The notes: generated by a model not told the origin, from the sequence alone. A stretch of DNA of 64,000 bases from an uncultured Gammaproteobacteria bacterium (GCA_964195905.1 CAXMQV010000127.1:17681-81680); one strand, 5' to 3'. Shown: positions 9,155-58,850, counted from the first letter of the stretch. Translations and numbers: made by a program.

Positions 9155-9181
9155 CCGGTGACTGGTGACCGGTGACTGGTT
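9155..9181. repeat. tandem heptamer array (CCGGTGA/CTGGTGA) x~4
   Basis: ccggtga ctggtga ccggtga ctggtta. Convergent spacer. Touches the flavin reductase stop codon. Confidence 0.9.
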
Positions 9182-9680
9182 AATGCCGCTTGACGCCGCC
9201 GTACTTCATGCGGGTGTCCGACATGGAGGCCACTTCGGCGTCATCGTCTCTGATGCCGGCCGCCACGACTTCGCCGAGAAACAGCGTATGGGTGCCTACC
9301 TCGATCGCCTCTCGGACCGCGCATTCGAGGTAGGCGACCGCCTCCTCGAACACCGGCGCCCCGGTTTGGCCTTCCCGAATCGGGCGCTCGTTGAGGGTCA
9401 TCCCATCCTTGGTTGCTGGCTTCGAGAACTTGACGAAGGGCCGAGTGTCTTCGGCATCCCAGAGATTGATGGTGAAGACCCGGCTCTCGTCGACGAGACG
9501 GTGGGTAACGGAGCTGCTGTCGACCGACACGGCGATGAGCACCGGCTCCATGGACACCTGAGTCACCCAACTCTGGGTCATGCCGTTCCACGCGTCGCCG
9601 GACCGCGAGCCGAGCAAGCACAGCGCGTTCGGAATCTTCCACGTGACCTTGTTGATGAGTTCGATCGGCAGATCTGACAC
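9180..9680 (-). CDS. flavin reductase-domain protein
   Basis: 166 aa. Flavin_Reduct-like pattern ALCLLGSRSGDAWNGMTQSWVTQVSMEPVLIAVSV...HTLFLGEVV. Confidence 0.75.
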   Translation of the reverse strand: MSDLPIELINKVTWKIPNALCLLGSRSGDAWNGMTQSWVTQVSMEPVLIAVSVDSSSVTHRLVDESRVFTINLWDAEDTRPFVKFSKPATKDGMTLNERPIREGQTGAPVFEEAVAYLECAVREAIEVGTHTLFLGEVVAAGIRDDDAEVASMSDTRMKYGGVKRH

Positions 9681-9725
9681 GAGCCTCCATCCTTTCGGAG
9701 AGGGATCACTGTACGGGATCCGGCG

Positions 9726-9750
9726 CAGCTACCAGCTACCAGTTACCAGT
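9726..9750. repeat. tandem heptamer array (CAGCTAC) x3.5
   Basis: cagctac cagctac cagttac cagt. Divergent spacer. Confidence 0.9.
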
Positions 9751-9781
9751 TTTCTGTGTCGGAGCGACGGGCCGGGGGCCC

Positions 9782-9809
9782 GCGGCCGGCGGCCGGCGGC
9801 CGGCGGCGA
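9782..9809. repeat. tandem heptamer array (GCGGCCG) x4
   Basis: gcggccg gcggccg gcggccg gcggcga. 30 nt upstream of the usp ATG. Confidence 0.9.
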
Positions 9810-9838
9810 AGCGACCATCCCGGCTAGCCTCACGCTTG

Positions 9839-10342
9839 ATGAACATCCTCATCGCAACGGCTGGCGTGCTTCCACCCGAGCCGGTCGCCGCCATCGTCGA
9901 GCGCCTGGTCGATTCTCGCGACACGGTGCGGGTGATAACGGTCCTTGCGATCCCCCGCTCGTTCCTCAACGAAATCCGGTCCGAGGAATGGCGACCGCTC
10001 ACTGAGAGTGCCCCCGGGTGGGACGAGGAGGAAGATGCGGTGATCGCTCGCTACGTCGAAGAGCGCGGCCGCCGACTCACCGACCCCGTGGTCTCCGCTC
10101 TGCGGACCCGCAATATCGATGCCGAGGCCATTCACCTGGAAGGCGAGGACAAAGCCGGGGCCATCATCAGCACCGCCGAAGCGATCGATGCCGACCTGGT
10201 CGTTCTCGGTGCTACCAGGCAGATCTTCGCCGAGTCCGCCTGGGAGAGCATCTCAGCCAGAGTGATGGCCGACACCCGCCGACCCGTGCTGGTCGTTCCC
10301 GGCCACATCCCCTCCGACGAGGAGCCCGAATCGATTGACTGA
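9839..10342 (+). CDS. universal stress protein (UspA family)
   Basis: MNILIATAG...ADLVVLGATRQ...PVLVVPG layout. ATG at 9839 preferred over TTG at 9836. Confidence 0.75.
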   Translation: MNILIATAGVLPPEPVAAIVERLVDSRDTVRVITVLAIPRSFLNEIRSEEWRPLTESAPGWDEEEDAVIARYVEERGRRLTDPVVSALRTRNIDAEAIHLEGEDKAGAIISTAEAIDADLVVLGATRQIFAESAWESISARVMADTRRPVLVVPGHIPSDEEPESID

Positions 10343-11222
10343 GTTCCTGCGCACCCCGGACGACGCCTTCGTGGGCCTTCCCGATTACCCCTTCGAGCCC
10401 AACTACTTCGAGTGGAACGGCATCCGGATGCACTACCTGGATGAAGGCGAAGGCAGGCCGGTCGTCCTGTTCCACGGTGAACCAACCTGGTCGTTCCTGT
10501 ACCGGAAGGTGATCCCTCCGCTGGTGGACGCCGGCTACCGATGCATCGCCCCCGATTACGTGGGACTTGGCAGGTCCGACAAGCCGGTCGACGACGCTTT
10601 CTATACCTTCGACATGCACACCGACTCCGTGACCGCTCTGCTGGGATCGCTCGACCTGGTCGATGCCACCGTCGTGGGTCAGGATTGGGGCGGACCGATC
10701 GGTCTCCGCTTCGCCGTCGAGAACCCTGAGATCGTGACCCGCCTTGTGGTTCTCAACACCGGTCTCTTCAGTGGCCGCGGCTCGATGTCCGAGAGCTGGA
10801 TGAGGTTCCGAGATTGGGTGAAAGACACGCCCGACCTCCCGGTCGACTTCCTCATGTCCCGCAGCGAGGCACACCCCTGGGGAGCCGAAGTCCTGGCCGC
10901 CTACGGAGCACCCTTCCCTACCGCGGAACACAAGGCCGGGATCAGGCGGTTCCCGATGATGGTGCCGCTCGATCCAGACGATCCGGGGGCGGCCGAGATG
11001 CTGGCGATACGCCAGAAGCTTTCGGCATGGGAGAATCCGGCCTACGTGTTGTTCTCGACTGGCGATCCCATCTTCACGACCCGTACCGGCGAACGCCTCG
11101 CCGAGCTCATCCCCGGCGCCGGTCCGCTCGACACCATCGACGATGCCGCCCACTTCCTTCAAGAAGACCAGGGTGAGGAAGTCGGCCGCCGGATCGCTTC
11201 CTGGCTCGATTCGCTCGGTTGA
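10335..11222 (+). CDS. haloalkane dehalogenase (DhlA-like, alpha/beta hydrolase)
   Basis: Close match along the whole length to remembered DhlA: IRTPDxxF..YPFxPNY...HYLDEG...HGEPTWSxLYRKxIP, nucleophile motif GQDWGG, C-terminal AAHFLQED. TTG start overlaps the usp stop. Confidence 0.9.
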   Translation: MTEFLRTPDDAFVGLPDYPFEPNYFEWNGIRMHYLDEGEGRPVVLFHGEPTWSFLYRKVIPPLVDAGYRCIAPDYVGLGRSDKPVDDAFYTFDMHTDSVTALLGSLDLVDATVVGQDWGGPIGLRFAVENPEIVTRLVVLNTGLFSGRGSMSESWMRFRDWVKDTPDLPVDFLMSRSEAHPWGAEVLAAYGAPFPTAEHKAGIRRFPMMVPLDPDDPGAAEMLAIRQKLSAWENPAYVLFSTGDPIFTTRTGERLAELIPGAGPLDTIDDAAHFLQEDQGEEVGRRIASWLDSLG

Positions 11223-11223
11223 C

Positions 11224-11781
11224 GTGGCACACCGGTTGACGCTCGTGCTGCTCGCTCTGGCGCTCCTGGCGAGCGCTTGTGGCAGCGGGCCATCGCTCAC
11301 CGAGTATGCCGCGGAACTCCAAGCGATCGTCGGCACTCACAACGTAGACATGGACGGCAACGACAGCGACTTCGAGCGCCAGCCTCCGACCGTCGAAAGC
11401 ATCCGCTCTTATGCGACCACCCGCATGGAACTTCGCAACACCTTCCTGGCCGAGTTGGAAGCACTCGAACCTCCCAGCGAGGCCGCCGATCTCCACTCAG
11501 CCGCCCTTGAAACGATTCGCACGCTGGTGGCGGCCGAGCAGGAATTGTTTGAGATTGCGACCGGCAGCGACGACATCAACGACCTGCAGGACTTGTGGAC
11601 TTCCCCGGCGGGCCAGACCGCCCGTGACGCCGACGCACAGACCATCGCCATCTGTCAGGCGGCGGAAGCTGCCATCAACTCGACCGAGGAGCGCCAGGCC
11701 CTCGTTGGCATGGTGTGGGTCCCAACCGAACTCCAGGAAGTTGTCACCGTCGCCTTCGAGTGCACCGCCGCCGAGCGCTGA
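11224..11781 (+). CDS. lipoprotein of unknown function
   Basis: GTG start one codon after the upstream stop. VAHRLTLVLLALALLASACG lipobox. High GC3. Confidence 0.65.
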   Translation: MAHRLTLVLLALALLASACGSGPSLTEYAAELQAIVGTHNVDMDGNDSDFERQPPTVESIRSYATTRMELRNTFLAELEALEPPSEAADLHSAALETIRTLVAAEQELFEIATGSDDINDLQDLWTSPAGQTARDADAQTIAICQAAEAAINSTEERQALVGMVWVPTELQEVVTVAFECTAAER

Positions 11782-11804
11782 GGAAATTCTCCCTCGTCAA
11801 TCCG

Positions 11805-11853
11805 GCGCCCCCTCCGCCCCTGGCGGCGCACCTCCCCCTCCGGGGGAGGAAAT
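11805..11853. repeat. REP-like double-hairpin element, copy 1 (between convergent genes)
   Basis: GCGCCCCCTCCGCCCCTGGCGGCGCACCTCCCCCTCCGGGGGAGGAAA. The terminal hairpin CCTCCCCC-tcc-GGGGGAGG is at 11831-11849. Confidence 0.8.
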
Positions 11854-12215: not shown

Positions 12216-12245
12216 GACCACCACTATGACGATCGGGTGTGACAG

Positions 12246-12280
12246 AAAACCGCAAACCGCCGACCGACAACCGCCCACCG
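12246..12280. repeat. degenerate heptamer array (NNNACCG) x5
   Basis: aaaaccg caaaccg ccgaccg acaaccg cccaccg. Confidence 0.8.
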
Positions 12281-12296
12281 CTATCTAAGCCAAGGA

Positions 12297-12324
12297 CGGT
12301 GGGCGGTTCGCGGTAGGCGGTACG
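12297..12324. repeat. degenerate heptamer array (CGGTNNG) x4, inverted relative to 12246-12280
   Basis: cggtggg cggttcg cggtagg cggtacg. The 12 nt cggtgggcggtt are the exact complement of 12269-12280. Confidence 0.8.
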
Positions 12325-12329
12325 CCCAC

Positions 12330-12360
12330 GAAGAAGCCGACCCCGGGGGTCGGCTTCTTC
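12330..12360. terminator. 13-bp GC-rich hairpin downstream of the secreted repeat-protein gene
   Basis: GAAGAAGCCGACC-ccggg-GGTCGGCTTCTTC. Confidence 0.6.
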
Positions 12361-12414
12361 GTTTCGGAGGGGCTGGTTTGAGGTGGGAGGGGGCCTCGTC
12401 CAGTCTCCTGATTG

Positions 12415-13323
12415 CTAGGCGCTGAGGCTCGCATCCTCGGCGGGTGGAGCGAAGTTGCCACCACCGAAGCCGGGGCCGCCGCGGCCGGGGCCACGTCGTC
12501 CGCCGCGATCGCCACGGTCACCGAAGCCGGGACCGTCACCGGGCACGGACTGCACCCTCTCGGTGATCCGCTCGGTGATGTCGGCCAGGCGCTCGTCGGC
12601 CTGCTCCTGGGTCAGGGTGCCGTCGGCAACCTTGTCCGCCAGGTCGGCGGCCGCCGGGGCGACGAGCCCATCCACCAGGGTGTCGAGATCGACGCCCTGC
12701 TCGGCTGCGATGTCGGCCAGGGTTGTCTCCCCAGCCTCGAGGGCGGCCTGGATGTCCTCGAATGGAATCCCGACTACGTCGGCCAGGTTCTGCTGGCGTT
12801 CGGCCTGGCGGGCTTCCCGCTCGGCCTCGTGCTCGGCACGCTCAACGTCACGGCTCGCCTGGATCTCGTCTTGAGTCGAGTTCACCATGGTGGTGATCTT
12901 CCCAGTCGCTTCGGCGAGGATCTCGTCGGCCTTCTCCTGAGTGATCTTCTCGTCGGCGACGGCGCCATCGAGTTTCTCCGTCAGGTCGGCCACCAACGAG
13001 TCGACCAGGGCTGTGCCACTGGACCCATTGGCAGTGGCTATGTCGCCCAGGGTGTCGCCGGCCTCGAGAGCGTCCACAATGACTTGCGGATCATCGATGC
13101 CGAGGAACTCCGCCACCCGGTCGAGGTGGCCGGGTCCGCCCCGCATGCCGCGGTGGCCGGCCCGTCCCTCGAACCCACGCTCGTGAGCGGACTTCTCCAC
13201 CCGGGTGTCCCCGGCAGGAGGGACCGTATCGTCGGTCCCATCACTCTGGGCGAAGGCCATGCCGCTTGCGGCGATGGCGGCCACCACCAGGGCGACGAAC
13301 CCGATCTTCAGACTCTGTTTCAT
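12415..13323 (-). CDS. secreted protein with internal ~75-aa duplication and Arg/Gly-rich C-terminal tail
   Basis: Signal peptide MKQSLKIGFVALVVAAIAASGMAFA. Two homologous segments (LGIDDPQVIVDALEAGDTLGDIA...EKITQEKADEILAE and VGIPFEDIQAALEAGETTLADIA...GTLTQEQADERLAD). Tail GDRGDRGGRRGPGRGGPGFGGG. Confidence 0.7.
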   Translation of the reverse strand: MKQSLKIGFVALVVAAIAASGMAFAQSDGTDDTVPPAGDTRVEKSAHERGFEGRAGHRGMRGGPGHLDRVAEFLGIDDPQVIVDALEAGDTLGDIATANGSSGTALVDSLVADLTEKLDGAVADEKITQEKADEILAEATGKITTMVNSTQDEIQASRDVERAEHEAEREARQAERQQNLADVVGIPFEDIQAALEAGETTLADIAAEQGVDLDTLVDGLVAPAAADLADKVADGTLTQEQADERLADITERITERVQSVPGDGPGFGDRGDRGGRRGPGRGGPGFGGGNFAPPAEDASLSA

Positions 13324-13413
13324 CTCTGTTCTCCTTTCCAAGAACTTGCGATAGTCCAAGGATGCGACCCGCAGGTATGGAGTCTGTTAGGGGGACCTAA
13401 GAGTGAGATAAGT

Positions 13414-13435
13414 TCAAGAGTCAACAGTCAACAGT
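13414..13435. repeat. tandem heptamer array (TCAACAG) x3
   Basis: tcaagag tcaacag tcaacag t. Confidence 0.85.
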
Positions 13436-13452
13436 TGGAGATACCCCTCTGA

Positions 13453-13477
13453 CTGTGAACTGTGAACTGTGAACTGG
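13453..13477. repeat. tandem heptamer array (CTGTGAA) x3.5
   Basis: ctgtgaa ctgtgaa ctgtgaa ctgg. Confidence 0.9.
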
Positions 13478-13492
13478 GGACCCGGGGGCTCC

Positions 13493-16690: not shown

Positions 16691-16739
16691 GACGCCCCCT
16701 CCGGCCCTTCGGGCCACCTCCCCCTCCGGGGGAGGAAAG
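16691..16739. repeat. REP-like double-hairpin element, copy 2 (between convergent aroQ and the aminotransferase gene)
   Basis: GACGCCCCCTCCGGCCCTTCGGGCCACCTCCCCCTCCGGGGGAGGAAA. The last 24 nt are identical to copy 1. Hairpins at GGCCC-ttc-GGGCC and 16717-16735. Confidence 0.8.
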
Positions 16740-19757: not shown

Positions 19758-19820
19758 GGTGACAGGTGATAGGTGACAGGTGACAGGTGACGGGTGACCG
19801 TTGGCCGTTGACCGGTGACG
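19758..19820. repeat. tandem heptamer array (GGTGACN) x9, the longest in the window
   Basis: ggtgaca ggtgata ggtgaca ggtgaca ggtgacg ggtgacc gttggcc gttgacc ggtgacg. Ends 3 nt before the ppk stop codon. Confidence 0.95.
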
Positions 19821-19823: not shown

Positions 19824-21968
19824 CTATGCAATCAGCCAGGGATCGCGTTGTTGAATCATCCGCAGCTGGCTGTCGAAGGGCAGTTCGCCATCGGTGGGTT
19901 GTCGACGCGTATAGGTTCCATCTGCGTGCAGGTAGCGGGTCTGGGCGGTGTCGGCCAGGTGGAGCTTGAAAATCTTCTCCATGACAATGCGCTGAATGTC
20001 GGGGTCCTCGACCGGATAGAGCGCCTCGACCCGCCGGTTGAGGTTGCGAGGCATGAGATCGGCCGATCCAATGAAGATCTCCGGGTCCCCACCGTTTCCG
20101 AAGTAGTAGATGCGGGCGTGCTCGAGGTAGCGCCCGACGATCGAGGTCACGGTGATGTTCTCGGAAACCCCCGGCACACCCGGTCGCAGGGCACAAATCC
20201 CTCGTACCTGCAGATCGATCTTCACCCCAGTCTGGGAGGCGGCGTAGAGCTGGGCGATGATGTCGCGATCGATGAGGGCGTTCATCTTGAAGGCGAGATA
20301 CCCCGTTCCGAGGGTTTCGTGGATGGCGACCTCGCGCTCAATGCGCCACTCGAGCTCTTCTCGCATGGTGTTTGGCGCCACGAGTAGTTTCCGGTAGTCG
20401 TCTTTTCTCGAGTATCCGGTGAGCGAGTTGAACACATCGGAAACGTCCGCCCCGATGTCGGGATCGGTCGTGAACAACCCGATGTCGGTGTAGATCCGCG
20501 CGGTGCCGACGTTGTAGTTGCCAGACGACATGTGGACATACCGCCGCAGTCCGTCGGGATCCCTTCGCACCACCATGGAGAGTTTGGCGTGGGTTTTGAG
20601 GCCCATCACTCCGTACACGACGTGCACGCCCGCCTCTTCCAGTGCCCGGGCCCACTCAATATTGGTGGTCTCATCGAAGCGAGCCTTCAGCTCCACAAGG
20701 ACCGCTACCTGCTTGTGCTTCTCCCGGGCCTCAAGGAGGGCGTCGACAATCGGTGAATTCGAACCAATCCGATAGAGGGTCTGTTTGATGGTGAGCACCT
20801 GGGGATCTCGAGCCGCCTCGCGGATGAAGTCGACCACCGGGGTGAAGCTGTCATATGGGTGGTAGAGAACGATGTCACGGCGCTGCATGATGGAGAAGAT
20901 GCTCTCGTCGGTTTGGAGAACGGGCGGCAACTTCGGCTGGATCGTGGGCTCCTTCAGGTCGGGTCGGTCCACCACCATCAGGTCCATGAGATCTGCCATG
21001 CCGAGAGGGCCCTCGGTGGCGAACACTTGATAGGGAGCCAGGTCGAGGTTGGCCACCAGAATGTCGCGGATGTGATCGGGGGTGCTGGCGTCGATTTCGA
21101 GCCGAACGGCCGAACCGAACTGGCGCATTTCGAGGCCCTCACTGACGGCGGCCAGCAGGTCGGCGGCCTCGTCCTCTTCGATCTCGACGTCGGCATCGCG
21201 GGTGACCCGGAAGGCGTAAGCGTCAACCACTTCCACGCCCGGAAACAGCAGACCGAGGCTGTCATGTACCACTTCTTCGATCCAGACGAAGTTGTTGGCG
21301 GCCACTTCGGCCAACCCGAGTGTCTCGAATGCCTCGGCCCGCTCTTCTGATGGGATCCGCAGCAACCGGGGAAGTGTGTGGGGGACCTTGACCCTGGCGA
21401 ATCTCTCGCCGAGCCGCGGATCTCGCAACACGACCGCCAGGTTCACCGACAGGTTGGAAATGTGCGGAAACGGATGGCTCGGGTCGAAAGCAAGCGGAGT
21501 GAGGGCGGGAAAGATCTCGGACTCGAAGTACTTCCTGAGCAGTTTGCGCTGCTTCTTCTTGAGGTCTTCCAGCAGGAGAATCTGGATGCCTTCCTCGGCC
21601 AGCTCTTCGATGATCCCGCTCCACGCCTCGTCAAACCGTTCGAGCTGGGGTTGCAGTCGCAGGCGGATGGCGGCGAGCTGCTCGGCCGGAGTCATGCCGT
21701 CGGCGGGCGCTTCAAGTGCTCCCGCCAGCAGCTGGTTGCGAAGTCCCGAGACCCTGATCATGAAGAACTCGTCGAGATTCGAGGCGAAGATGGAGAGGAA
21801 TTTGATTCGCTCGAAGAGAGGACGCTGCCCATCGGTTGCTTCTTCGAGCACCCTCAAATTGAACTGTAACCAGCTGAGCTCACGGTTGATATAGAGCTCC
21901 GGGCTGTACAGATCCGGGTACGTGCTGGCAGAGCCGAGCGGGCTCTCGATTGCCATTGGTCTCCTCAT
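19824..21968 (-). CDS. ppk: polyphosphate kinase 1
   Basis: 714 aa. YINRELSWLQFNLRVLEE, RIKFLSIFASNLDEFFMIRV, two PLD-like C-terminal domains (HAKLSMVVR). Confidence 0.95.
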   Translation of the reverse strand: MRRPMAIESPLGSASTYPDLYSPELYINRELSWLQFNLRVLEEATDGQRPLFERIKFLSIFASNLDEFFMIRVSGLRNQLLAGALEAPADGMTPAEQLAAIRLRLQPQLERFDEAWSGIIEELAEEGIQILLLEDLKKKQRKLLRKYFESEIFPALTPLAFDPSHPFPHISNLSVNLAVVLRDPRLGERFARVKVPHTLPRLLRIPSEERAEAFETLGLAEVAANNFVWIEEVVHDSLGLLFPGVEVVDAYAFRVTRDADVEIEEDEAADLLAAVSEGLEMRQFGSAVRLEIDASTPDHIRDILVANLDLAPYQVFATEGPLGMADLMDLMVVDRPDLKEPTIQPKLPPVLQTDESIFSIMQRRDIVLYHPYDSFTPVVDFIREAARDPQVLTIKQTLYRIGSNSPIVDALLEAREKHKQVAVLVELKARFDETTNIEWARALEEAGVHVVYGVMGLKTHAKLSMVVRRDPDGLRRYVHMSSGNYNVGTARIYTDIGLFTTDPDIGADVSDVFNSLTGYSRKDDYRKLLVAPNTMREELEWRIEREVAIHETLGTGYLAFKMNALIDRDIIAQLYAASQTGVKIDLQVRGICALRPGVPGVSENITVTSIVGRYLEHARIYYFGNGGDPEIFIGSADLMPRNLNRRVEALYPVEDPDIQRIVMEKIFKLHLADTAQTRYLHADGTYTRRQPTDGELPFDSQLRMIQQRDPWLIA

Positions 21969-29788: not shown

Positions 29789-32700
29789 TCACCTGAAATC
29801 GCGGCTCTTCACCTTCTCAACAAGAAGAGGATGGAACCGGCGCGCCACCAGGTTGGTGACTCCATCACGGAATTCGAGAATGCCCTCGATGATGAGCCCG
29901 GCTTCTTTGCGAGCGACCTCCCGCTGGGCATCCCAAACCGCCGGCAACACGACCACATTGAGCAGGCCGGTCTCGTCCTCCAGGTTGAAGAACATCACTC
30001 CGTTTGCCGTGCTGGGACGCTGACGATGAGTCACGATCCCTCCCACCCGCACTCGCTTGCCGTGCCGCCTCCGGCCGAGGGCATCGGAAACGGTCAGGCA
30101 CCCCTCCATCTCGAGCTGAGCCCTGACGAACTCGACGGGATGACGTGAGGAGACTCCGGTTGTCCACAGATCGGCCTGCATCTCCTCCAGCTCGGACATG
30201 CCCGGCAGGGGCGGCGCCTCTACCCCGGGAGCCAGCGCCAGCCGATCCGGTCCGAGACCGGCGGCGGCCCCGGCTGCCCACATCCCGTCCCGCCTGCCAA
30301 CCCCCAGCGACTCGAGCGCCCCGGAGGCCGCCAGGCTCTCGAGAGCATCGAGGGGAAGGCCGGTCCGCTGTGCGAGATCTTCGACCGACGAGAACGCTTC
30401 GCCGAACCGGCGAGCCGCCTCGATGCGGGTGACCTCGGCATCGCCAAGGTTGCGCACGTACCGCAGCCCCATTCGGAGTGCCACGGGCGGGCGAAGCGGA
30501 TCTCCCTCCGGGCCCCGTCCGCGCCGGTAGCGCATGGCGTAGTAGGTGACAATGTCGTCCTGATCGGCTTCGGCCGGCTCGACCGTGCAGTCATATTCGG
30601 AGCGGTTCACGTCGGGACCCTCCACGATCACGCCGTGGCGCTGGGAATCCTGAACGAGCGAGTTCGGGGTGTAGAAGCCCATCGGCTGGGCGTTGAGGAG
30701 ACCGCACAGGAACTCGGTCGGCCAGTGGTATTTGAGCCAGGAGGAGGCATAGACGATGTAGGCGAAGCTCACCGAGTGACTTTCGGGGAATCCGAAGGCG
30801 GCAAACCCCTGCAGCTTCTCCCAGATCTCGTCGGCGGCCGCTCCGGTGATCCCGTTGCCCGCCATCCCCTCGTACAGCTCGTCCTGGAGCTTGGCCATCG
30901 CCTCGACGCTCCGCTTGGAGGACATCGCCATCCGTAACCGGTCGGTCTGGCCGCCACTGAACCCGGCGCATACCCGGGCCAGCTCCATGAGCTGCTCCTG
31001 GAACACGGGGACTCCAAGCGTCTTCTCCAAAATGGGCTGAGCGAGCGGATGAGGGTAGGTGATGGGCGCTTCACCATTTCGTCGTTGCAGAAAGGGATGC
31101 ACCGAGTGACCCTGAATGGGACCGGGACGGATGAGGGCTACTTCGATGGCCAGGTCGTAGAACGTCTTTGGCTTCATCCGCGGCAACGTCGCCATCTGGG
31201 CTCGCGACTCCACCTGGAACACGCCGACGGTGTCGGCCTTGGTGAGCATCTCGTAGATGACCGGCTCCTGGGGGATGGTGGCGAGGTCAACACTGATGGC
31301 ATGGGTCTCTGCGATGACGTCAACGGCCAGGTGGAGCGCATTGAGCATGCCGAGACCGAGCAGATCGAACTTGACGATCCCGATGGCAGCGCACGACTCC
31401 TTATCCCACTGGAGAACCGACCGATCCTCCATCCGACCCCACTCAAGCGGCACCACCTCGTGGAGCGGCCGGTCGGCAATGACCACCCCACCGGAATGTA
31501 TGCCGAGATGGCGGGGGAAGCCGTCCAGACGGTGGCAGGTCTCGTAGATGAGATCGGCGGTGAGGCCCGCCGGGAGCTCGACCTGACTGGAAATCGACTT
31601 CGGGTCGCGGGTATCGAGATATTTGGTGAGCCCATTGACCTGTGCCTGGGTGAGCCCGAAGGCCTTGCCGACATCCTGGAGCACCGATCGAGCCCGGTAG
31701 GTGATGACGTTGGCCACCATGGCAGCCCGCTCCCGCCCGTACCGCTGGTAACAATACTGGATGACCTCCTCACGCCGCTCGGCCTCGAAGTCGACGTCAA
31801 TATCGGGGGGACGGCCGCGTTCCTCGGACAGGAAGCGTTCGAATGGCAGGTGGAGCCGGATCGGATCGACCCTGGTGAGCCCGATGCACCGGCACACCGC
31901 CGAGTCGGCTCCCGACCCCCGGATCTGGCAGTAGATATCGCGCGAACGGGCGAACTCGACGAGATCCCACACAATGAGGAAATAGCCGGGAAACCCGAGC
32001 TCATCAATGATCTTCAACTCATGTTCGAGACGAGTGGCAGCCCGGGGCTCAACTCCCCCGGCCCCGTCCGGGTACACATCACGGGCACCCTCGAACACGA
32101 GATGGCGCAGGTACTCCATCTCGCTGCGGAAATGACCCGGCATCGGAAAGTCGGGAAGGCGGGGGGCCACCAACCGCAGGTCGAATGCCAGCGACTCCCC
32201 GAGCCGGGCGGCCGTCGCCACCGCCCCCGGAAAAGGGGCAAAGCGACGCTCCATTTCGGCCGGCGACCGGAGAAACCGTTCATCGGTGGCAGGTCGGAAC
32301 CCGTCGGCGGTATCGAGATCGCGCCGGCCGCCGATGGCAGCGAGCACCTCGGAGAGGTCGACCCGGTCGCGGGTGTGATAGTGGACGTTGTTGGTGGCAA
32401 CCACCGGAACCCGGAGCTGGCGAGCCACCTCGGCGACCAGCTGGTTGCGAGGGTCGTCCTCGGGCATAGCGTGATCCCACAGCTCGGCGTAGAGACGGTC
32501 GCCGAACACATCTCGCAGCCGACTTAGCTCCCGCCGTACTCCAACCGCATCACCGATCCCGGCCGCCCGGGGGACCGCCCCCTGATGGCACCCGGTGAGA
32601 GCCACCAGTTCGCCCCGGCGGGCAGCCGTCGCCAGATCATCCCACCGGTAGGCGGGCCGGTCCTTCTCTCCCCGGAACTGGGCTCGGGTGATGAGCTCAC

Positions 32701-33124: not shown

Positions 33125-33140
33125 TCGAACATATGTTCGA
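33125..33140. promoter_or_regulatory. LexA (SOS) box TCGAACATATGTTCGA upstream of dnaE2
   Basis: Perfect palindrome matching the actinobacterial consensus TCGAAC-N4-GTTCGA. It lies 13 nt from the dnaE2 ATG and 57 nt from the divergent membrane-protein ATG. Confidence 0.85.
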
Positions 33141-35171: not shown

Positions 35172-35213
35172 CGGCGGGCAGGATACCTGTTCTGTCGAGC
35201 AAAGCTCGACGGA

Positions 35214-35248
35214 GCCGACCGCCCACCGCCCACCGTCGGCCGCCCAGA
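35214..35248. repeat. tandem heptamer array (GCCCACC-like) x5
   Basis: gccgacc gcccacc gcccacc gtcggcc gcccaga. Confidence 0.8.
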
Positions 35249-35253
35249 CGAAC

Positions 35254-35299
35254 AGCTGGGAGCTCGTAGCGGTGGCTGGTAGCTGGTAGCTGGCAGCTC
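35254..35299. repeat. tandem heptamer array (AGCTGGT/GCTGGTA) x~6.5
   Basis: agctggg agctcgt agcggtg gctggta gctggta gctggca gctc. This is the reverse complement of the CAGCTAC family at 9726. Confidence 0.85.
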
Positions 35300-39000: not shown

Positions 39001-39021
39001 ATCGGCTCCGCCGATCTATCG
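38995..39021 (+). terminator. 11-bp hairpin overlapping the acyl-CoA synthetase stop codon
   Basis: CGATAGATCGG-ctccg-CCGATCTATCG. Confidence 0.5.
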
Positions 39022-39024
39022 CTA

Positions 39025-39052
39025 GTCACCGGTCGCCGGTCACCGGTCACCA
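39025..39052. repeat. tandem heptamer array (GTCACCG) x4
   Basis: gtcaccg gtcgccg gtcaccg gtcacca. Confidence 0.9.
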
Positions 39053-39122
39053 GCCTTCCAGAACCTTCGTTCGCGCTTCGGTCGGAGACTCAACGAACTC
39101 AGTGCCCATAGGTCTTCTTGCC

Positions 39123-39150
39123 GGTGACGGGTGACGGGTGACCGGCGACT
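39123..39150. repeat. tandem heptamer array (GGTGACG) x4, inverted relative to 39025-39052
   Basis: ggtgacg ggtgacg ggtgacc ggcgact. Confidence 0.9.
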
Positions 39151-39152
39151 CG

Positions 39153-39183
39153 TCAGTTGATCGGCCGCAGGCCGATCAACTGA
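39153..39183 (-). terminator. 13-bp hairpin overlapping the VIT1 stop codon
   Basis: TCAGTTGATCGGC-cgcag-GCCGATCAACTGA. Confidence 0.5.
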
Positions 39184-45189: not shown

Positions 45190-45225
45190 ACGGCCAAGTT
45201 AGCAATGCCGCCGCCCGCTACCCGC

Positions 45226-45274
45226 CAATCGGCATCAGGCATCAGGCATCAGGCATCAGTTGACAGTTGACAGC
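45226..45274. repeat. tandem heptamer array (CATCAGG x4-5 then TGACAGT x2)
   Basis: caatcgg catcagg catcagg catcagg catcagt tgacagt tgacagc. Confidence 0.9.
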
Positions 45275-45301
45275 AAGAATCGTTGGCGTCAGGCATAGCG
45301 A

Positions 45302-45315
45302 AAACGGGAAACGGG
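45302..45315. repeat. heptamer doublet (AAACGGG) x2
   Basis: aaacggg aaacggg. This is the complement of the CCCGTTT family at 58823. Confidence 0.7.
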
Positions 45316-50282: not shown

Positions 50283-50310
50283 CCGGTGACCGGTGACAGG
50301 TGACCGGTGA
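50283..50310. repeat. tandem heptamer array (CCGGTGA) x4
   Basis: ccggtga ccggtga caggtga ccggtga. Fills most of the 41-nt convergent spacer. Confidence 0.9.
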
Positions 50311-50316
50311 CCTTCT

Positions 50317-51789
50317 TTAGTCATAGATCCCCACCAGGAACGCCTCCCCCTGGCGGACCTCACAGAGGAAGGCTCCGGCAGAGGTAACGAGTTGGTAGCG
50401 ATCTGCGGAGGGCTCTCCCTCCCACCACCGCCCGACTCGACGCCATGGACCGGCCCAGGACAGAATCGGTTCCCACCGGGTCCTGAGCCGGATCCGAGCG
50501 GGCAGACCGTCCTCCCATTCCACGCCAACCGGCCGGGGCTGGGGAGGCACGAGCGTGGGCGACGGAGCAGGAAGGCGTCCCGGCCAGGGAGCCGATGGAT
50601 CTCGCGATGGTGCAGGCGCCGGTTCCCCCCATCGAAACCACTGGACCTGGTCTAGTGGATCCCTGCCTCCCTGGCGGCGAGCTTGCAGCACTGCTTCTGG
50701 CCCGACCAGCGCCTGGGCACGGATAAGAGCCCGGGTGGCCTCCGCTTCGCTGGTCGGATCCTCGGTCAAACCAAGCTGGCGCCCCTCCCCCGACACATCG
50801 GCAGGCATCACACGCAGCCTGCGCAACCCACCGGCGATTCCCCCCGACTCCACCCAGGCCCGCAACTGCCATCGAATCCGCTCGGCCAGGTTGGCCTCGT
50901 CAAAGGGGTCGGCACTCCGCCACACCCGTTTGAGCACCGTGCCGGCAACCGACTCGGCTTCAATTTCCACCCGGTGGGGAGCCGTACCCTCCGCTCTCAG
51001 TCCATCCAACAGTCGGTGAGCCAGGTTGCGTGAAGCAAATCCGGCCTGCTCGAGGTTGACGAGCGGGTCTTCGAATTTCTCTTCAACCGCATGGTCCTCC
51101 GGCACAATACGCGGGTGGGTATCGCGATCCTCGCCCGAGGCGTAGCGATGGGCATCCAGGCCGAGCGTGCCGAACCGGGAGGCCACCGCCGCCCGGGGAA
51201 GGTTTGCCAGTTCGCCGAGCGTGGTGATCCCGAGCCAGCGGAATGTCGAGGCCAGCTCATCACTCCCGATGGCTCCGACATCGAGCGATGAGAGAAACGC
51301 CGCCTCGTCGGTGACGATGAAAGGCCCACCATCTCGCTCCGCCAATACGGCAGCCTGGTGGGCGGCAAAAGGGCCCTGGGCAACTCCCAGGGCAGCCCCC
51401 GGGCCGGCCACCGCCTCGATGGCACCAACCACTTGATCGACGAGGACACTCTCGCCTCCGTAGTAGCGGACCGCCCCACCGACGGGGACATACACGAGAC
51501 CGGGATGGACCATTTCAACCCGTGGAATCAAGGCTTCGATCGCCGCCACTACGGGCTCGAACCCTCCAGCCTCCGCCCCTCGATCCTGGCCATACGTAAC
51601 AACAGACGGGCACACGGCTTCGGCTTCTCTCCGCAGCATCCCTCCCTGCACGCCCTGCCCGCGGGCCAGGGCATTGGCCGCGACGATCCGATTGGTGTCA
51701 TCGACGACCTGGCACGGCCTATCCGACGGCGCGTCCAGGCAACGCAACGGCCAATCGGGAAACCACACGCATAGTGTCCGCGCCATCAT
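50317..51789 (-). CDS. imuB: ImuB (Y-family polymerase-like mutasome subunit)
   Basis: MMARTLCVWFPDWPL N-terminus. Position downstream of imuA'. Confidence 0.85.
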   Translation of the reverse strand: MMARTLCVWFPDWPLRCLDAPSDRPCQVVDDTNRIVAANALARGQGVQGGMLRREAEAVCPSVVTYGQDRGAEAGGFEPVVAAIEALIPRVEMVHPGLVYVPVGGAVRYYGGESVLVDQVVGAIEAVAGPGAALGVAQGPFAAHQAAVLAERDGGPFIVTDEAAFLSSLDVGAIGSDELASTFRWLGITTLGELANLPRAAVASRFGTLGLDAHRYASGEDRDTHPRIVPEDHAVEEKFEDPLVNLEQAGFASRNLAHRLLDGLRAEGTAPHRVEIEAESVAGTVLKRVWRSADPFDEANLAERIRWQLRAWVESGGIAGGLRRLRVMPADVSGEGRQLGLTEDPTSEAEATRALIRAQALVGPEAVLQARRQGGRDPLDQVQWFRWGEPAPAPSRDPSAPWPGRLPAPSPTLVPPQPRPVGVEWEDGLPARIRLRTRWEPILSWAGPWRRVGRWWEGEPSADRYQLVTSAGAFLCEVRQGEAFLVGIYD

Positions 51790-52315
51790 CCTCCACTTCG
51801 AGTATGTGATGTATCCCCCCTACCCCCTTGCCCGAAGCGGCCAGAGTGACCCGCCGCTCCCCCAACCGGCCTCTTCCCCGCTCGACTCCCTCCCAGGCCA
51901 CCTCCTGTGCCTCCAGTCGAAGATGGGTGATGCCAGTCGGAATATCCCCATCGATCGGGCGTAGGACAACCGACGTCGACCGGACTCGGGCGAGAGCCCC
52001 GAGGCGGCGCAACAGAGGGGTGGCCACGCCAGCCGGAATCTCGGCATACACCGCTTGCATTCCCTCAACGAGGGCGGCGGTGACCTGCGGCCAGCGGCGG
52101 GCATCGGGGCATCGGACCACCACCATCCGTTCGGCCGACACGCCCATCTCCCAGAGGGCAAGCGGGTTGAGCCACCCGCGCACATCAACACACGCCACCC
52201 ACCCCGGTTGATCCCTCAGCAGTCCCATTCCCAGCCGGGTCAGGCCCGACCCGGGGGCTCCGATCAGCCCAATTATTTTTCCTGCCTCTAGTTCCAACGT
52301 CATAGGACAGTTCAC
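51719..52315 (-). CDS. imuA': ImuA' (RecA-fold SOS mutasome subunit)
   Basis: GLIGAPGSGLTRLG P-loop-like segment. LexA box immediately upstream. Precedes imuB, with a 71-nt overlap as called. Confidence 0.7.
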   Translation of the reverse strand: MNCPMTLELEAGKIIGLIGAPGSGLTRLGMGLLRDQPGWVACVDVRGWLNPLALWEMGVSAERMVVVRCPDARRWPQVTAALVEGMQAVYAEIPAGVATPLLRRLGALARVRSTSVVLRPIDGDIPTGITHLRLEAQEVAWEGVERGRGRLGERRVTLAASGKGVGGIHHILEVEDDGADTMRVVSRLAVALPGRAVG

Positions 52316-52320
52316 AGTAA

Positions 52321-52336
52321 TCGAACATATGTTCGA
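52321..52336. promoter_or_regulatory. LexA (SOS) box TCGAACATATGTTCGA upstream of imuA'-imuB
   Basis: Identical 16-mer to the dnaE2 box. It lies 6 nt upstream of the imuA' ORF start. Confidence 0.85.
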
Positions 52337-55838: not shown

Positions 55839-58301
55839 CTAGCCGTCGAGGCCTTTCTCGAACTCGTCCTCGAAGCTGGCGGCCCGACGACGGGTGGAGC
55901 CGGCGTCACCGGAGTCGCTCCGGTTCTCGGCGGCCTCATCCGAGCGGGGACGGCGGCGGCGGGAACTGTCGCCGCTATCACCCTTGTCCGACCGGTCACG
56001 GCTCTCGGAGCGTCCGCCCCGATCACGGTCACGGCCACCACGGTCACGATCACCACGATCGCGGTCACGGCCACCACGGTCACGATCACCACGGTCACGG
56101 TCACGGTCACGACCGCGATCACCGCGGTCGTCGTCACCGTCGCCTCCGCCATCGGAGGGCGGCTCACCGGCCATGTTGAGGCTGACCTTGCCGTTGCGGT
56201 CGATCTCGCCGACCACGACCTGGATCTTGTCGCCCAGGCTGAGCTCATCTTCGACATTGTCGATCCGGCGATTGCCGCCGATCTTGGAGATGTGCAGCAG
56301 ACCGTCGCGACCGGGAAGGATGTTGACGAACGCACCGAACTTGGTGATGTTCACCACTTCGCCTTCGTACTCCTTGCCCAATTCGGCCTCGGGCGGGAAG
56401 GCGATCATCATCACCTTGTTCTTGGCAGCTTCCATCGACTCCTGGTCGGCGGCGCCGACCCGGATGGTCCCGTCATCGTCGATGTCGAGCGTGGCGCCCG
56501 TCTCCTCCTCGATTTCGCGGATCATCTTGCCCTTGGGACCAATGATCTCGCCGATCTTGTCGCGCGGGATCTGCACCGCTTCGATGCGGGGCGTGAACGG
56601 CCGCAGCTCTTCGCGGGGCCCCTCGATCGCCTCATGCATGGCGGCCAGGACCTTGAGCCGGGCATCCTTGGCCTGGTTGAGGGCACCGGTGAGCACCTCT
56701 TCGGGCAAGCCTTCGATCTTCGTATCGAGCTGCAAGGCCGTGATGACATCGGCTGTGCCTGCCACCTTGAAGTCCATGTCTCCGAGAGCGTCCTCGGCGC
56801 CGAGGATGTCGGTCAGAGTGACGAACCCGTCTTCGTGAGCGATTAGTCCCATGGCGATGCCGGCCACCGGAGCAATGATCGGAACACCTGCGTCCATGAG
56901 CGACAAGCTCGAGCCGCATACCGACGCCATCGAGCTCGACCCATTCGACGCCAGCACTTCCGACACGAGCCGGAAGGCATAGGGGAAGTCATCGGAAGTC
57001 GGAATGGTGGGAAGCAGGGCCTTCTCAGCGAGCGCCCCGTGGCCGATCTCACGACGCTTGGGACCGCGCATGAAGCCGGTCTCACCGGTCGAGTACGGCG
57101 GGAAGTTGTAGTGGTGCATGTAGCGCTTGGATTCCTCGAGCGCGATGGTGTCGAGCATCTGCTCCATCCGCAGCATTCCGAGGGTGGTCACATTGAGCAC
57201 CTGCGTGTCACCGCGCTTGAACAGCCCGGAGCCATGCGTCCGATCGAGGACGCCGACCTCGGCTTCGAGCGCCCGGATATCGGCGGCGGCGCGCCCGTCG
57301 AGACGGACACCCTCGGAGACCACCCGCTGGCGCATCTTCTGCTTCATTACCGAACCGAACGCCTTCTTGACCATGGCGGCCTCGTCGGCTTCGGTGTCCT
57401 CGCTGATGAGCTCGGCCTGGATCGCTTCGCGGAGGCCGGACTGCGCTTCGCTGCGGGCCTTCTTGTCGGTAATGGTAATGACATCCATGGCGCGATCACC
57501 GATGGCGGCCGACACGCGGTCAAACACCTCGGGCGTGTAGTCGGTTACGAGCGGGAACTCGACCTCGGCCGGATTGAAGTTGGCGGCGAGCTCGAGCTGA
57601 AGATCGATGAGCTGACCGATGAAGGCCTTGGATTCTTCGAGGCCCCGGGCCACAGTGTCCTCATCGCTCGGCGGCTGGCCCTCTCCGATGAGACGCAACC
57701 CGTCCTCGGTGGAACCGGCCTCAACCATGACGACGTCGATGCCGCCCTCGCTGTTGCGTTTTCCGGCAACGGTCAGCTCGAATACGCCGCCGTCCATGTC
57801 CGTGTGAGTCGGCATGGCCATCCACTGGCCATCCTTGAGGCCCATGCGGACCGCCGCCAGCGGGCCTTCGAACGGGATCGGGCTGATCGTGAGCGCCGCC
57901 GAGGCACCGTTGAGAGCCGCCACGTCGTAGGGGTTCTCATGATCGACCTGCAGGATGGTGGCGATGATGTGGGTCTCGGAGCGGAACCCTTCTTTGAAGG
58001 ATGGCCGCAGCGGCCGGTCGATGAGGCGACAGGTGAGGATGGCTCGCTCGGTGGCCCGACCCTCCCGTCGGAAGAACGATCCGGGGATCCGTCCGACCGC
58101 ATACATGCGCTCTTCTACGTCCACGGTGAGCGGGAAGAAGTCGACTCCTTCGCGCAGGCGGCGGGATGCCGTTGCGGTCACGAGGACCTCGGTTCCGCCG
58201 ACGTTGACGGTTACGGCCCCGTCGGCTTGGAGGGCAGTCTTGCCGGCCGAGAATGCTATCTCGGAGTTTCCGACCTGGCCCTTGACGGTGAATTCAGACA
58301 C
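55839..58301 (-). CDS. pnp: polyribonucleotide nucleotidyltransferase (PNPase) with ~100-aa Arg/Asp-rich C-terminal extension
   Basis: Two RNase PH domains, then KH and S1 (GEVVNITKFGAFVNILPGRDGLLHIS). Tail GDRGRDRDRDRGDRDRGGRDRDRGDRDRGGRDRDRGGRSESRDR. Confidence 0.95.
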   Translation of the reverse strand: MSEFTVKGQVGNSEIAFSAGKTALQADGAVTVNVGGTEVLVTATASRRLREGVDFFPLTVDVEERMYAVGRIPGSFFRREGRATERAILTCRLIDRPLRPSFKEGFRSETHIIATILQVDHENPYDVAALNGASAALTISPIPFEGPLAAVRMGLKDGQWMAMPTHTDMDGGVFELTVAGKRNSEGGIDVVMVEAGSTEDGLRLIGEGQPPSDEDTVARGLEESKAFIGQLIDLQLELAANFNPAEVEFPLVTDYTPEVFDRVSAAIGDRAMDVITITDKKARSEAQSGLREAIQAELISEDTEADEAAMVKKAFGSVMKQKMRQRVVSEGVRLDGRAAADIRALEAEVGVLDRTHGSGLFKRGDTQVLNVTTLGMLRMEQMLDTIALEESKRYMHHYNFPPYSTGETGFMRGPKRREIGHGALAEKALLPTIPTSDDFPYAFRLVSEVLASNGSSSMASVCGSSLSLMDAGVPIIAPVAGIAMGLIAHEDGFVTLTDILGAEDALGDMDFKVAGTADVITALQLDTKIEGLPEEVLTGALNQAKDARLKVLAAMHEAIEGPREELRPFTPRIEAVQIPRDKIGEIIGPKGKMIREIEEETGATLDIDDDGTIRVGAADQESMEAAKNKVMMIAFPPEAELGKEYEGEVVNITKFGAFVNILPGRDGLLHISKIGGNRRIDNVEDELSLGDKIQVVVGEIDRNGKVSLNMAGEPPSDGGGDGDDDRGDRGRDRDRDRGDRDRGGRDRDRGDRDRGGRDRDRGGRSESRDRSDKGDSGDSSRRRRPRSDEAAENRSDSGDAGSTRRRAASFEDEFEKGLDG
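56021..56092 (-). repeat. 36-nt tandem duplication inside the pnp tail-coding region
   Basis: gatcacggtcacggccaccacggtcacgatcaccac / gatcgcggtcacggccaccacggtcacgatcaccac (1 mismatch). Encodes GDRDRGGRDRDR twice. Confidence 0.9.
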
Positions 58302-58319
58302 GCGTCTCTCCTTTTGTTT

Positions 58320-58448
58320 GGGGAGGAAGCGGGCCGATTACCAGTAGTCATGCCTTGCTCGTAACAAGGGATCACCACTGACAACCACCCGGGTCCTCAC
58401 ATTGTTCGCGACTATTCGCGTTGAAGGCGGCCCGATGGCTGCCTCCCC
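58320..58448 (-). promoter_or_regulatory. rpsO-pnp intergenic long-range stem (candidate RNase III / autoregulatory leader)
   Basis: GGGGAGG (58320-58326) pairs with CCTCCCC (58442-48) and CGGGCC (58330-35) with GGCCCG (58429-34), enclosing about 90 nt that include an inner hairpin CCTTG-N7-CAAGG (58353-58369). Confidence 0.4.
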
Positions 58449-58450
58449 GG

Positions 58451-58717
58451 TTACCGACGAAGTCCCAGCTTGGCTATGAGACTGCGGTAGCGCTCCACAT
58501 CCTGATTCTTCAGGTAATTGAGGAGACGACGGCGTTTTCCGACCAGCATGAGTAGTCCACGCCGGCTGTGATGATCCTTTTCGTGGAACTTCAAATGCTC
58601 GGTGAGATGGGCTACGCGTTGGGTAATCAGCGCCACCTGGACTTCCGGCGAACCGGAGTCGGTGGCGTGCTTGCCGAACTCTTCAATAATGGTCTTGGTG
58701 TCATTCACCTTGGAAAC
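58451..58717 (-). CDS. rpsO: 30S ribosomal protein S15
   Basis: [54 protein letters not shown] start at 58717 gives 88 aa. Confidence 0.92.
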
Positions 58718-58783
58718 TCCGCCGGAATCGGCTTTCGGAACTGTAGCAGAGCGAGAACGATAGCTCGCTGTTTGGGAACCGCC

Positions 58784-58811
58784 AACAGGCATCAGGCATC
58801 AGGCATCGGGT
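58784..58811. repeat. tandem heptamer array (CATCAGG) x4
   Basis: caacagg catcagg catcagg catcggg. Confidence 0.9.
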
Positions 58812-58822
58812 AAGAATCGTTA

Positions 58823-58850
58823 CCCGTTTCCCGTTGCCGTTTCCGGTTGC
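58823..58850. repeat. imperfect heptamer array (CCCGTTT-like) x4
   Basis: cccgttt cccgttg ccgtttc cggttgc (one 6-nt step). Confidence 0.75.

Follow-up and report, generated by a model that had tools for sequence, protein, structure and literature searches.

Heptanucleotide tandem arrays in the intergenic spacers of an uncultured Acidimicrobiia genome: a dense and probably neutral class of simple repeats

What are the short tandem arrays with a seven-nucleotide period that lie scattered between the genes of contig CAXMQV010000127.1 (assembly GCA_964195905.1, positions 17681-81680), and does any function hold them there? In this 64,000-nt stretch, hereafter the window, which is deposited as DNA of an uncultured Gammaproteobacteria bacterium, a sequence-only reading had listed 17 such arrays at 10 loci between positions 9155 and 58850 and had likened them to the short tandemly repeated repetitive (STRR) heptamers of cyanobacteria. 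Our follow-up analysis finds that the period-7 observation is real and strongly non-random. The arrays are probably heptanucleotide microsatellites that grow and become homogenised in place by slippage, are tolerated only outside reading frames and are largely neutral.

Tandem Repeats Finder (TRF), run over the window with a score of at least 30, gave period-7 calls at 16 of the 17 positions listed earlier, and the remaining one (45302-45315) is an exact two-copy dimer of AAACGGG, so that the count of 17 arrays at 10 loci was confirmed; apart from the dimer, every array holds at least three copies. Within the 17 listed intervals, the fraction of bases identical to the base 7 nt downstream is 0.68-1.00. 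The summed length of the arrays, 537 nt, amounts to 9.6% of the intergenic DNA of the window (5,603 nt in 48 spacers), as delimited by gene calls from a codon-bias model trained on the window (59 genes, 91% coding). When an array is defined strictly, as at least two exact adjacent units spanning at least 18 nt, 13 are found and all 13 are intergenic, although the window is 91% coding. The earlier claim that no array lies inside a coding sequence holds; at 9155-9181 and at 35254-35299, a stop codon is overlapped by 1-2 nt.

The enrichment is confined to one period and to the spacers. In these, 17 exact period-7 runs were counted, where 200 dinucleotide-preserving shuffles gave 0.45 on average and at most 3, and the 58.5 kb of coding DNA holds 7 such runs, approximately the chance number for its length. 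At periods 5, 6, 8 and 9, the spacers contain 2, 4, 0 and 0 exact runs, which is no enrichment. The lag-7 autocorrelation of the spacers falls to background once the arrays are masked; thus, the signal comes from discrete arrays. Of the 33 spacers with a length of 40 nt or more, 10 hold arrays, namely 3 convergent, 2 divergent and 5 co-directional ones, in line with the earlier report of all three arrangements. Units, copy numbers and settings are as follows, in window coordinates.

9155-9181: GGTGACY, 3.9 copies, filling a 47-nt convergent spacer between an MmpL-like gene (stop at 9132) and a flavin reductase gene (stop at 9180, overlapped by the array)
9726-9750: CAGCTAC, 3.6 copies, in the divergent spacer 9681-9838
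9769-9809 (listed earlier as 9782-9809): GGCCGGC, a GC-only unit, 5.6 copies, in the same divergent spacer
12241-12281: AACCGCN, 5 copies, degenerate; left arm of an inverted array pair
12297-12325: GGTNNGC/GGCGGTN, 4 copies; right arm, pairing with 12256-12280 (25 nt, 88% complementary)
12328-12362, minus strand: perfect 17-bp hairpin ACGAAGAAGCCGACCCC/GGGGTCGGCTTCTTCGT, just downstream of gene 12415-13323
13414-13435: TCAACAG, 3.1 copies, containing two copies of CAACAGT
13452-13477: ACTGTGA, 3.6 copies, perfect, 15 nt past the stop codon of an ABC-transporter gene
19758-19820: GGTGACN, 9 copies, the longest array; GTCACCN in the sense of ppk, beginning 3 nt after the ppk stop codon
35214-35248: GCCCACC, 3-5 copies, degenerate
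35254-35299: GGTAGCT-type, 4-6.6 copies, adjoining the stop codon of gene 35299-36384
39025-39052: GTCACCG, 4 copies, 24 nt past the stop codon of a FadD-like gene; left arm of an inverted pair
39123-39150: GGTGACG, 4 copies, 25 nt ahead of the stop codon of the convergent gene; right arm (20 nt, 95% complementary)
45226-45274: GGCATCA, 4 copies, followed directly by GTTGACA, 2 copies, in the divergent gnd spacer
45302-45315: AAACGGG, 2 copies (dimer only), matching 58823-58835 inverted
50283-50312: CCGGTGA, 4.3 copies, filling a 41-nt convergent spacer before the imuB stop codon
58784-58811: CAGGCAT (the GGCATCA class), 3-4 copies, upstream of rpsO
58818-58853: CCCGTTT-type, 4-5 copies, imperfect, pairing in RNA with the preceding array

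The hairpin at 12328-12362 is not itself a heptamer array; in spacer 12225-12414, the arrays come after this separate terminator-like stem. At 58823-58850 the array has a match of 71% and is thus imperfect, and TRF assigns it a period of 13 as well. Two of the earlier statements on unit families were correct only in part: GGTGACN, which had been placed at five loci, forms five arrays in four spacers, and AAACGGG/CCCGTTT, which had been placed at two, is represented at the second merely by the dimer. The two verbatim copies of CAACAGT were seen again, at 13422-13435. The neighbouring genes are housekeeping or metabolic genes (ppk, gnd, rpsO-pnp, dnaE2/imuB, the ABC transporter and an acyl-CoA ligase).

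The same spacers were then compared in related genomes, using syntenic contigs whose nucleotide identity to the window is 75-85%; individual contigs are referred to below by L numbers. The array at 19758-19820 is hypervariable among relatives with 76-85% nucleotide identity across ppk and the adjoining genes. Immediately past the ppk stop codon, the window and the fetched genomes read as follows.

Window: GTCACCN, 9 copies, including the variant units GTCAACG and GCCAACG
L154: GTCACCT/G, 5 copies
L153: GGTCAAC, 5 copies
L092-94: CGCCCAC, 4.3 copies, a different heptamer
L095/L096: a single GTCACCG
L090: a single GTCACCC
L155: no unit
L081: no spacer at all

The GGTCAAC of L153 is a variant that occurs as units 2-3 of the window array and that has replaced the other units in L153. 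Past the ABC-transporter gene, the spacer holds a pair of arrays both in the window and in L090; their positions align, the junction AGTCAGAG is common to both, and approximately 100 nt beside the downstream gene are well conserved. Unit sequence, by contrast, differs at 2-3 of 7 positions (TCACAGT/CTGTTGA in the window, AGTCCCT/GTCTTGG in L090), and the copy number is 3 in the window against 8.6 in L090 (GTCTTGG, 8.6 copies, opposite 13414-13435; AGTCCCT, 4.6 copies, opposite 13452-13477). L153 has three copies of CCGTTGA aligned with 13414-13435. Beside this heptamer array, in the same spacer, stands a period-6 array (TACGTC, 5 copies, at approximately 7421-7450 of L153); the tandem repeats of such spacers are thus not exclusively of 7 nt.

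Further spacers show the same mixture of retention and replacement. The terminator-like hairpin of spacer 12225-12414 and its adjoining AACCGC array are retained in L090, and the counterpart in L153 holds GCCGANN in 4 copies. The CTGGTAG/CAGCTAC array of spacer 9681-9838 is likewise kept in L090, which at the position of 9769-9809 has an inverted CAGCTAC-type array instead. In spacer 35136-35298, past a conserved small hairpin, L131 has AACGGTC (4.7 copies) and GACTTGG (3.6 copies) where the window has its GCCCACC and GGTAGCT arrays. The spacer after the FadD-like gene is array-free in the closest relatives L097, L098 and L099 (approximately 35, 3 and 22 nt), and in the window (39001-39175) it extends over 175 nt and consists of a hairpin, four copies of GTCACCG, 70 unique nucleotides, four copies of GGTGACG and a second hairpin. 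Co-occurrence of arrays in orthologous spacers of the window and L090 (2 of 3) is not significant (hypergeometric probability approximately 0.28). Compared in this way, the relatives show arrays born from a single resident unit, arrays gained and lost, shifts in copy number and the homogenisation of variant units within an array, all of which is the behaviour of microsatellites.

The gene content had been called actinobacterial in the sequence-only reading, and this proved right. Ppk (gene 19824-21956) is 87-94% identical to proteins named at NCBI as those of Acidimicrobiia metagenome-assembled genomes (MAGs), the species-representative genome that best matches the window is again an Acidimicrobiia MAG, and the genes for an MMPL-family transporter, dnaE2/imuB, PNPase and others are consistent with an actinobacterial host. 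By these sequence comparisons, the host is actinobacterial in the broad sense, of the class Acidimicrobiia. An independent assembly of the same species (L091, GCA_964196415.1), 99.92% identical over 11.3 kb, includes, at positions 11267-11315, the opening 49 nt of the GTCACCN array that follows ppk, and the contig breaks off within it, which suggests that such arrays break short-read assemblies. One array of a relative is identical across three separate metagenome assemblies. Because of the L091 array and this threefold recovery, the arrays are not assembly artefacts.

Where the arrays lie within spacers was analyzed in a pool of the window and every fetched locus that reached 6 kb (1.9 Mb in total, 86% coding by its own gene calls), in which intergenic DNA holds 56 of the 60 arrays. 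A stop codon is no more than 5 nt away for 15 of 49 arrays, where random placement of each array within its own spacer predicts 5.7 (p approximately 2e-5), and a start codon is as close for 2, against 4.1 predicted; called starts are less reliable than called stops. Among the window spacers of at least 40 nt, arrays are found in 8 of the 20 that contain a gene 3' end and in 2 of the 13 that are purely divergent, a difference that is not significant. The stop-proximal arrays of the window, L090 and L092 are all richer in C than in G when read as mRNA (7 of 7, from approximately 5 independent loci), but a general sense-strand bias of this kind after stop codons was rejected over all lineages (12 vs 11; 12/23). 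At four loci, an array is situated 21-90 nt upstream of a start codon.

The 64 kb contain at least nine unrelated unit classes, and classes recur at 2-4 spacers. Matches between spacers consist of the repeat units themselves plus a single composite pair, 45222-45315 (gnd) and 58779-58835 (rpsO), both upstream of the gene, which have in common CCGCCAA, (GGCATCA)n, AAGAATCGTT and an AAACGGG/CCCGTTT array. The GCCCACC class of 35214-35248 is also arrayed after ppk in L092 and after an APH gene in L154. Single GGTGAC sites outside arrays number 63 in the whole window, against 48 +/- 6 expected, a mild excess of potential seeds. Inspection spoke against two ideas of what the units might have in common: a GGT/ACC core is present in only 3 of about 9 classes, and backup stop codons in all frames are not a general feature of the units, the longest array having none in the ppk sense. 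Unit matches across phyla at up to one mismatch occur at about the chance rate and are uninformative.

Better folding of RNA than of shuffled sequence was found at 4 of the 10 loci, in each case through the pairing of two roughly complementary arrays: 12240-12330 (z of -5.5), 39019-39150 (-5.0, on either strand), 58779-58860 (-4.2) and 13405-13485 (-2.6). The other six loci fold no better than shuffles, including the longest array, 19758-19820 (z of +1.2). When inverted repeats within 150 nt are ranked by length over the whole window, array pairs take the first two places; the units include no excess of self-complementary ones (13% vs 12% under the null), and consensus promoter and terminator scans gave no enrichment over shuffles. 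The array at 50283-50312 pairs with itself into a hairpin with CTTCTTT next to it, and its GGTGACC stretch at 50289-50308 scores as a hairpin with a T-rich tail. It is the only array that fits an intrinsic terminator, and we reject this function for the arrays in general, which agrees with the earlier remark that they are not simply terminators. Rfam families were absent at gathering thresholds over the whole window and at E<=1 around 58250-59050, and the window contains no tRNA genes.

How could such arrays come about? If they are microsatellites, as we favor, a short proto-repeat in a spacer would have been duplicated in a 7-nt register by slipped-strand mispairing or unequal exchange; we infer this slippage mechanism itself. 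Copy number then shifts and variant units spread, as the comparison of relatives shows: orthologous arrays differ in number and in unit sequence yet stay in place. Since 7 is not a multiple of 3, a change in copy number inside a gene shifts its reading frame, which is the probable reason why the arrays are restricted to spacers and are commonest in what is presumably the least constrained stretch, immediately past the stop codon. Two complementary arrays that happen to lie near each other would produce a long imperfect hairpin, and inverted pairs of this kind may arise by template switching within quasi-palindromes. There is no evidence of a sequence-specific function for the arrays as a class, and we infer that a general function is lacking; effects on expression, through hairpins at 3' ends or through spacer length, are probably incidental and specific to individual loci.

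Several observations weigh against this explanation. Slippage alone leaves unaccounted for both the enrichment of period 7 while periods 5 and 8 are not enriched and the recurrence of a few unit classes: exact-class pairs of units at unlinked spacers of the window number 3, against 0.04-0.11 expected, and the ACCGCCC and GTCACCN classes are arrayed at other loci in relatives. The composite upstream of gnd and rpsO includes sequence that is not repeat, and at three spacers arrays have been retained by two or three species. No residual lag-7 signal that would betray decayed arrays was seen in the masked window spacers, and population variation was not seen in the array that is identical in three assemblies. 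Finally, the stop-codon adjacency and the seven C-rich sense strands also fit a role at mRNA 3' ends.

Density was compared with the same detector for all sets of loci, the Chloroflexota loci having been fetched only because they encode a Ppk homologue. In arrays per Mb, the values are as follows.

Window: 203 (about 265 using the 17 arrays listed earlier)
Close relatives: 82
Chloroflexota loci: 48
Armatimonadota: 49
Nitrospirota, Myxococcota, Rubrobacteria and methanogen loci: 0

The Chloroflexota MAG contigs L002, L009, L036 and L044 are densely set with heptamer arrays of many different units. Inverted pairs are frequent among these (for example GGGATTA/ATCCCTA), and many arrays begin at a stop codon or a few nucleotides from one, which is the pattern of the window in another phylum. 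A more distant group, whose FadD-like protein is 55-56% identical, has composite blocks that begin 2 nt past the stop codon of the FadD-like gene (L118, 2762-2930; L120, 11788-11941; L123, 2955-3114). Each block consists of (AGAGCAC)n, AGAGAAGAGA and (AGCYGTC)n with an inverted TTCTGTG partner array downstream, and the whole block is duplicated in L123, pointing to higher-order repeat growth. Tandem small hairpins with a TTCG loop (GGCAACGCCTTCGGCGTTGC and variants) were also seen in relatives (L095, 5494-5741; L096, 2896-3143; L097, approximately 1560-1640; L125, approximately 2720-2820), at two unlinked spacers and each time after GTCGCCGGTCACCG or GTCACCG. The stem pairs the heptamer GCAACGC with its reverse complement, GCGTTGC; the element is absent from the window.

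The main rival to in-place slippage is that the arrays are functional elements of mRNA 3' ends, serving either as C-rich, unstructured landing sites for Rho or, where inverted pairs form, as hairpins that terminate transcription or shield the 3' end from exonucleases, like the repetitive extragenic palindromes (REP) of enterobacteria. The significant adjacency to stop codons (15 vs 5.7 expected) would fit such a role, and so would the C-rich sense strands in 7 of 7 arrays, the strong hairpins at four loci (z of -2.6 to -5.5), the hairpin with its T-rich tail at 50289-50308 and the higher, though not significantly higher, share of array-bearing spacers among those with a gene 3' end. We nevertheless consider it unlikely. 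Two loci lie in divergent spacers and two more are closer to a start than to a stop codon; the arrays of 12225-12414 stand beyond a separate, perfect terminator-like hairpin, and those of 39001-39175 between two hairpins that overlap stop codons. Close relatives, moreover, lack arrays at the same gene ends, and the C-rich bias, which reflects approximately five independent loci, disappears over all lineages. A more far-reaching form of this idea, which strikes us as improbable, is that selection preserves the 7-nt period and the position after the stop codon and not the sequence; the arrays would then be a flexible, fast-evolving 3'-end module, a platform that loads or blocks Rho or a factor moving in 7-nt steps, shared by Acidimicrobiia and Chloroflexota and possibly related to STRRs. 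Such a module would be the first general function for heptamer repeats and would explain the choice of 7. It is quite improbable, in our estimation, that the arrays are instead binding platforms for a lineage-specific factor reading 7-nt steps, such as an oligomer of cold-shock or OB-fold proteins or a ring resembling HutP, with the unit families as its recognition sequences. HutP is a ring protein that reads UAG-N4 repeats. The recurrence of unit classes at unlinked spacers beyond chance, including ACCGCCC in L092 and L154 and GTCACCN in L154, L095 and L097, would be expected of recognition sequences, as would the strictness of the period and the composite upstream of gnd and rpsO in the same orientation, and cold-shock proteins were raised in connection with heptamer repeats by MacGregor (2015, PMC4679880). 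Against this stand the nine or more unrelated classes within 64 kb, the free change of units at orthologous sites, the limitation of a GGT/ACC core to 3 of about 9 classes and the inconsistent orientation of arrays relative to genes, and no candidate factor was identified.

Dispersal of the arrays by a mobile or recombining element of small size, MITE-like (miniature inverted-repeat transposable element) or REP-like, with heptamers as its ends or body, would account for their recurrence at unlinked loci. It is a highly improbable explanation, even though the spacer after the FadD-like gene is approximately 140 nt longer than in L097-L099 and is bounded by inverted GTCACCG/GGTGACG arrays, 45222-45315 and 58779-58835 have non-array sequence in common in addition to an array, GTCGCCGGTCACCG precedes dispersed UUCG-loop hairpins at two unlinked loci of relatives, and transposition has been suggested for scattered short-repeat satellites (Subirana & Messeguer 2019, PMC6749651). 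The 70-nt core between the two arrays of the FadD-like spacer has no second copy in the window or the fetched loci, and we accordingly reject a MITE for this insert with inverted array ends; neither target-site duplications nor copies of full length were seen, the window lacks the hairpin repeat found in relatives, and growth from a single resident unit, as at the ppk locus, requires no insertion. Contingency loci, in which copy number switches or tunes a promoter, are the explanation to which we give almost no credence. At the hmw promoters of Haemophilus influenzae, the copy number of 7-bp repeats has this effect. Four array loci do lie 21-90 nt upstream of start codons, and heptamer SSRs (simple sequence repeats) are able to tune promoters (PMC12721329, PMC8262952). 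The neighbours, however, are housekeeping or metabolic genes and most arrays lie at gene 3' ends, so that a phase-variable location, in a promoter or reading frame of surface or virulence genes, was rejected; variation within a population was not seen in the one array recovered in three assemblies.

Other sequences of the window deserve mention in their own right. An identical palindrome, TCGAACATATGTTCGA, occurs at 33125-33140, upstream of dnaE2 (29789-33112, minus strand), and at 52321-52336, upstream of the operon whose last gene is imuB-like (51719-52297 and 50317-51747, minus strand). It matches the Gram-positive/actinobacterial LexA SOS-box consensus, TCGAAC-N4-GTTCGA, and the two palindromes suggest an SOS-regulated mutasome. 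A 24-nt stretch, CACCTCCCCCTCCGGGGGAGGAAA, which contains a CCTCCCCC/GGGGGAGG hairpin, is identical at 11829-11852 and 16715-16738, in two unlinked convergent spacers and each time directly against the stop codon of the minus-strand gene; it may represent a small dispersed family of terminator-like or REP-like hairpins. Upstream of rpsO, at 58887-58976, lies a G+C-rich dispersed sequence (GGGGTTTCNCTGGGCCTGGCGCCGGCGGCG...) that occurs twice within an insertion in L090 (19143-19172 and 19288-19379) and has no Rfam match at E<=1. The PNPase gene (55839-58301, minus strand) contains a coding tandem repeat of 36 nt (2.5 copies, 92% match, 56020-56110), which encodes an Arg/Asp/Gly-rich C-terminal tail (DRDRGDRDRGGRDRDRG...).

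Heptamer repeats, STRRs and their relatives included, have been known for more than 30 years, and their function and the preference for 7 nt are unexplained. The present lineage adds a very dense case in a GC-rich phylum other than the cyanobacteria, and its related metagenome genomes allow single loci to be traced from zero or one unit to nine. The arrays are also candidate high-resolution strain markers for uncultured Acidimicrobiia, although they can break short-read contigs.

How do these arrays compare with known repeats? In enterobacteria, REP and the bacterial interspersed mosaic elements (BIME) are built from palindromic units of 35-40 nt that occur in hundreds of near-identical copies. 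The window arrays resemble them as short extragenic repeats that are concentrated at gene 3' ends and whose inverted pairs form hairpins, but most are unstructured direct repeats; only 4 of 10 loci fold, through array pairs, self-complementarity among the units stays at the chance level and near-identical copies are lacking, and membership is rejected. The STRR units of cyanobacteria, said to have been described by Mazel and colleagues in 1990, are reportedly CCCCAGT, TTGGTCA and CAACAGT. The analogy drawn in the sequence-only reading is apt as to form, both being tandem, intergenic heptamers with several recurring unit families in both orientations and, in the window, in all types of spacer. 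As to membership it fails: the host belongs to another phylum (Acidimicrobiia), and the units differ save for one array, 13414-13435, the only one of the 13 strict arrays with an STRR unit (CAACAGT, or STRR3; approximately 0.03 expected by our own estimate). This match is most simply a coincidence and no evidence of kinship.

Cyanobacterial STRRs are mentioned in PMC4692102, which also describes the GGGAATC/GGGGAYT repeats of Xanthomonas and Nostoc (Rehm et al. 2015). These likewise include some inverted pairs, but they are G-tract units able to form G-quadruplexes, whereas the window units have no G-runs. The TAACTGA direct repeats of marine Beggiatoaceae, some Cyanobacteria and Bacteroidetes (MacGregor 2015, PMC4679880) are intergenic heptamers of 2-6 copies at many loci, with mixed arrays in some genomes, and in these respects are close to the window arrays; they differ in having one dominant unit, mainly just upstream of start codons, where the window has many units, just after stop codons. 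For Burkholderia, satellites derived from heptamers have been reported as well, and for Chloroflexus a 14-nt family that is scattered (Subirana & Messeguer 2019, PMC6749651).

The closest likeness is to the long SSRs surveyed by Mrazek, Guo & Shah in 2007. As that survey is summarised in PMC4679880 and PMC4692102, heptanucleotide repeats outnumber the other long SSRs in most prokaryotic genomes, three Actinobacteria are among the ten genomes richest in repeats of 5-11 nt, and polymerase slippage was proposed as the cause. By the same accounts, the class has been known since 2007 with Actinobacteria included, and the novelty implied by the earlier remark, that no such repeat system was known to the reader from the actinobacterial phylum, is not supported. 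Within the literature that could be searched, we found no such arrays described for Acidimicrobiia and nothing relevant for Chloroflexi, and in Acidimicrobiia arrays of this type appear to be previously undescribed. Acidimicrobiia, to our knowledge, were not covered by the 2007 survey. The window arrays share with long SSRs, as these are portrayed in the same two papers, tandem 7-nt units that exceed chance, a restriction to non-coding DNA, an occurrence across phyla that include some Actinobacteria, variability between related genomes and the proposal of slippage; we find at least three head-to-tail copies in 16 of the 17 arrays, and arrays that are more and longer than composition predicts, lie in non-coding DNA and vary in both number and unit. 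What sets the window apart is density, approximately 200-270 arrays per Mb and approximately 10% of the intergenic DNA. The adjacency to stop codons and the turnover of units at fixed sites go beyond prior descriptions and need a check in complete genomes. In sum, the arrays are an unusually dense case of the known class of heptanucleotide long SSRs, and not a new type of system.

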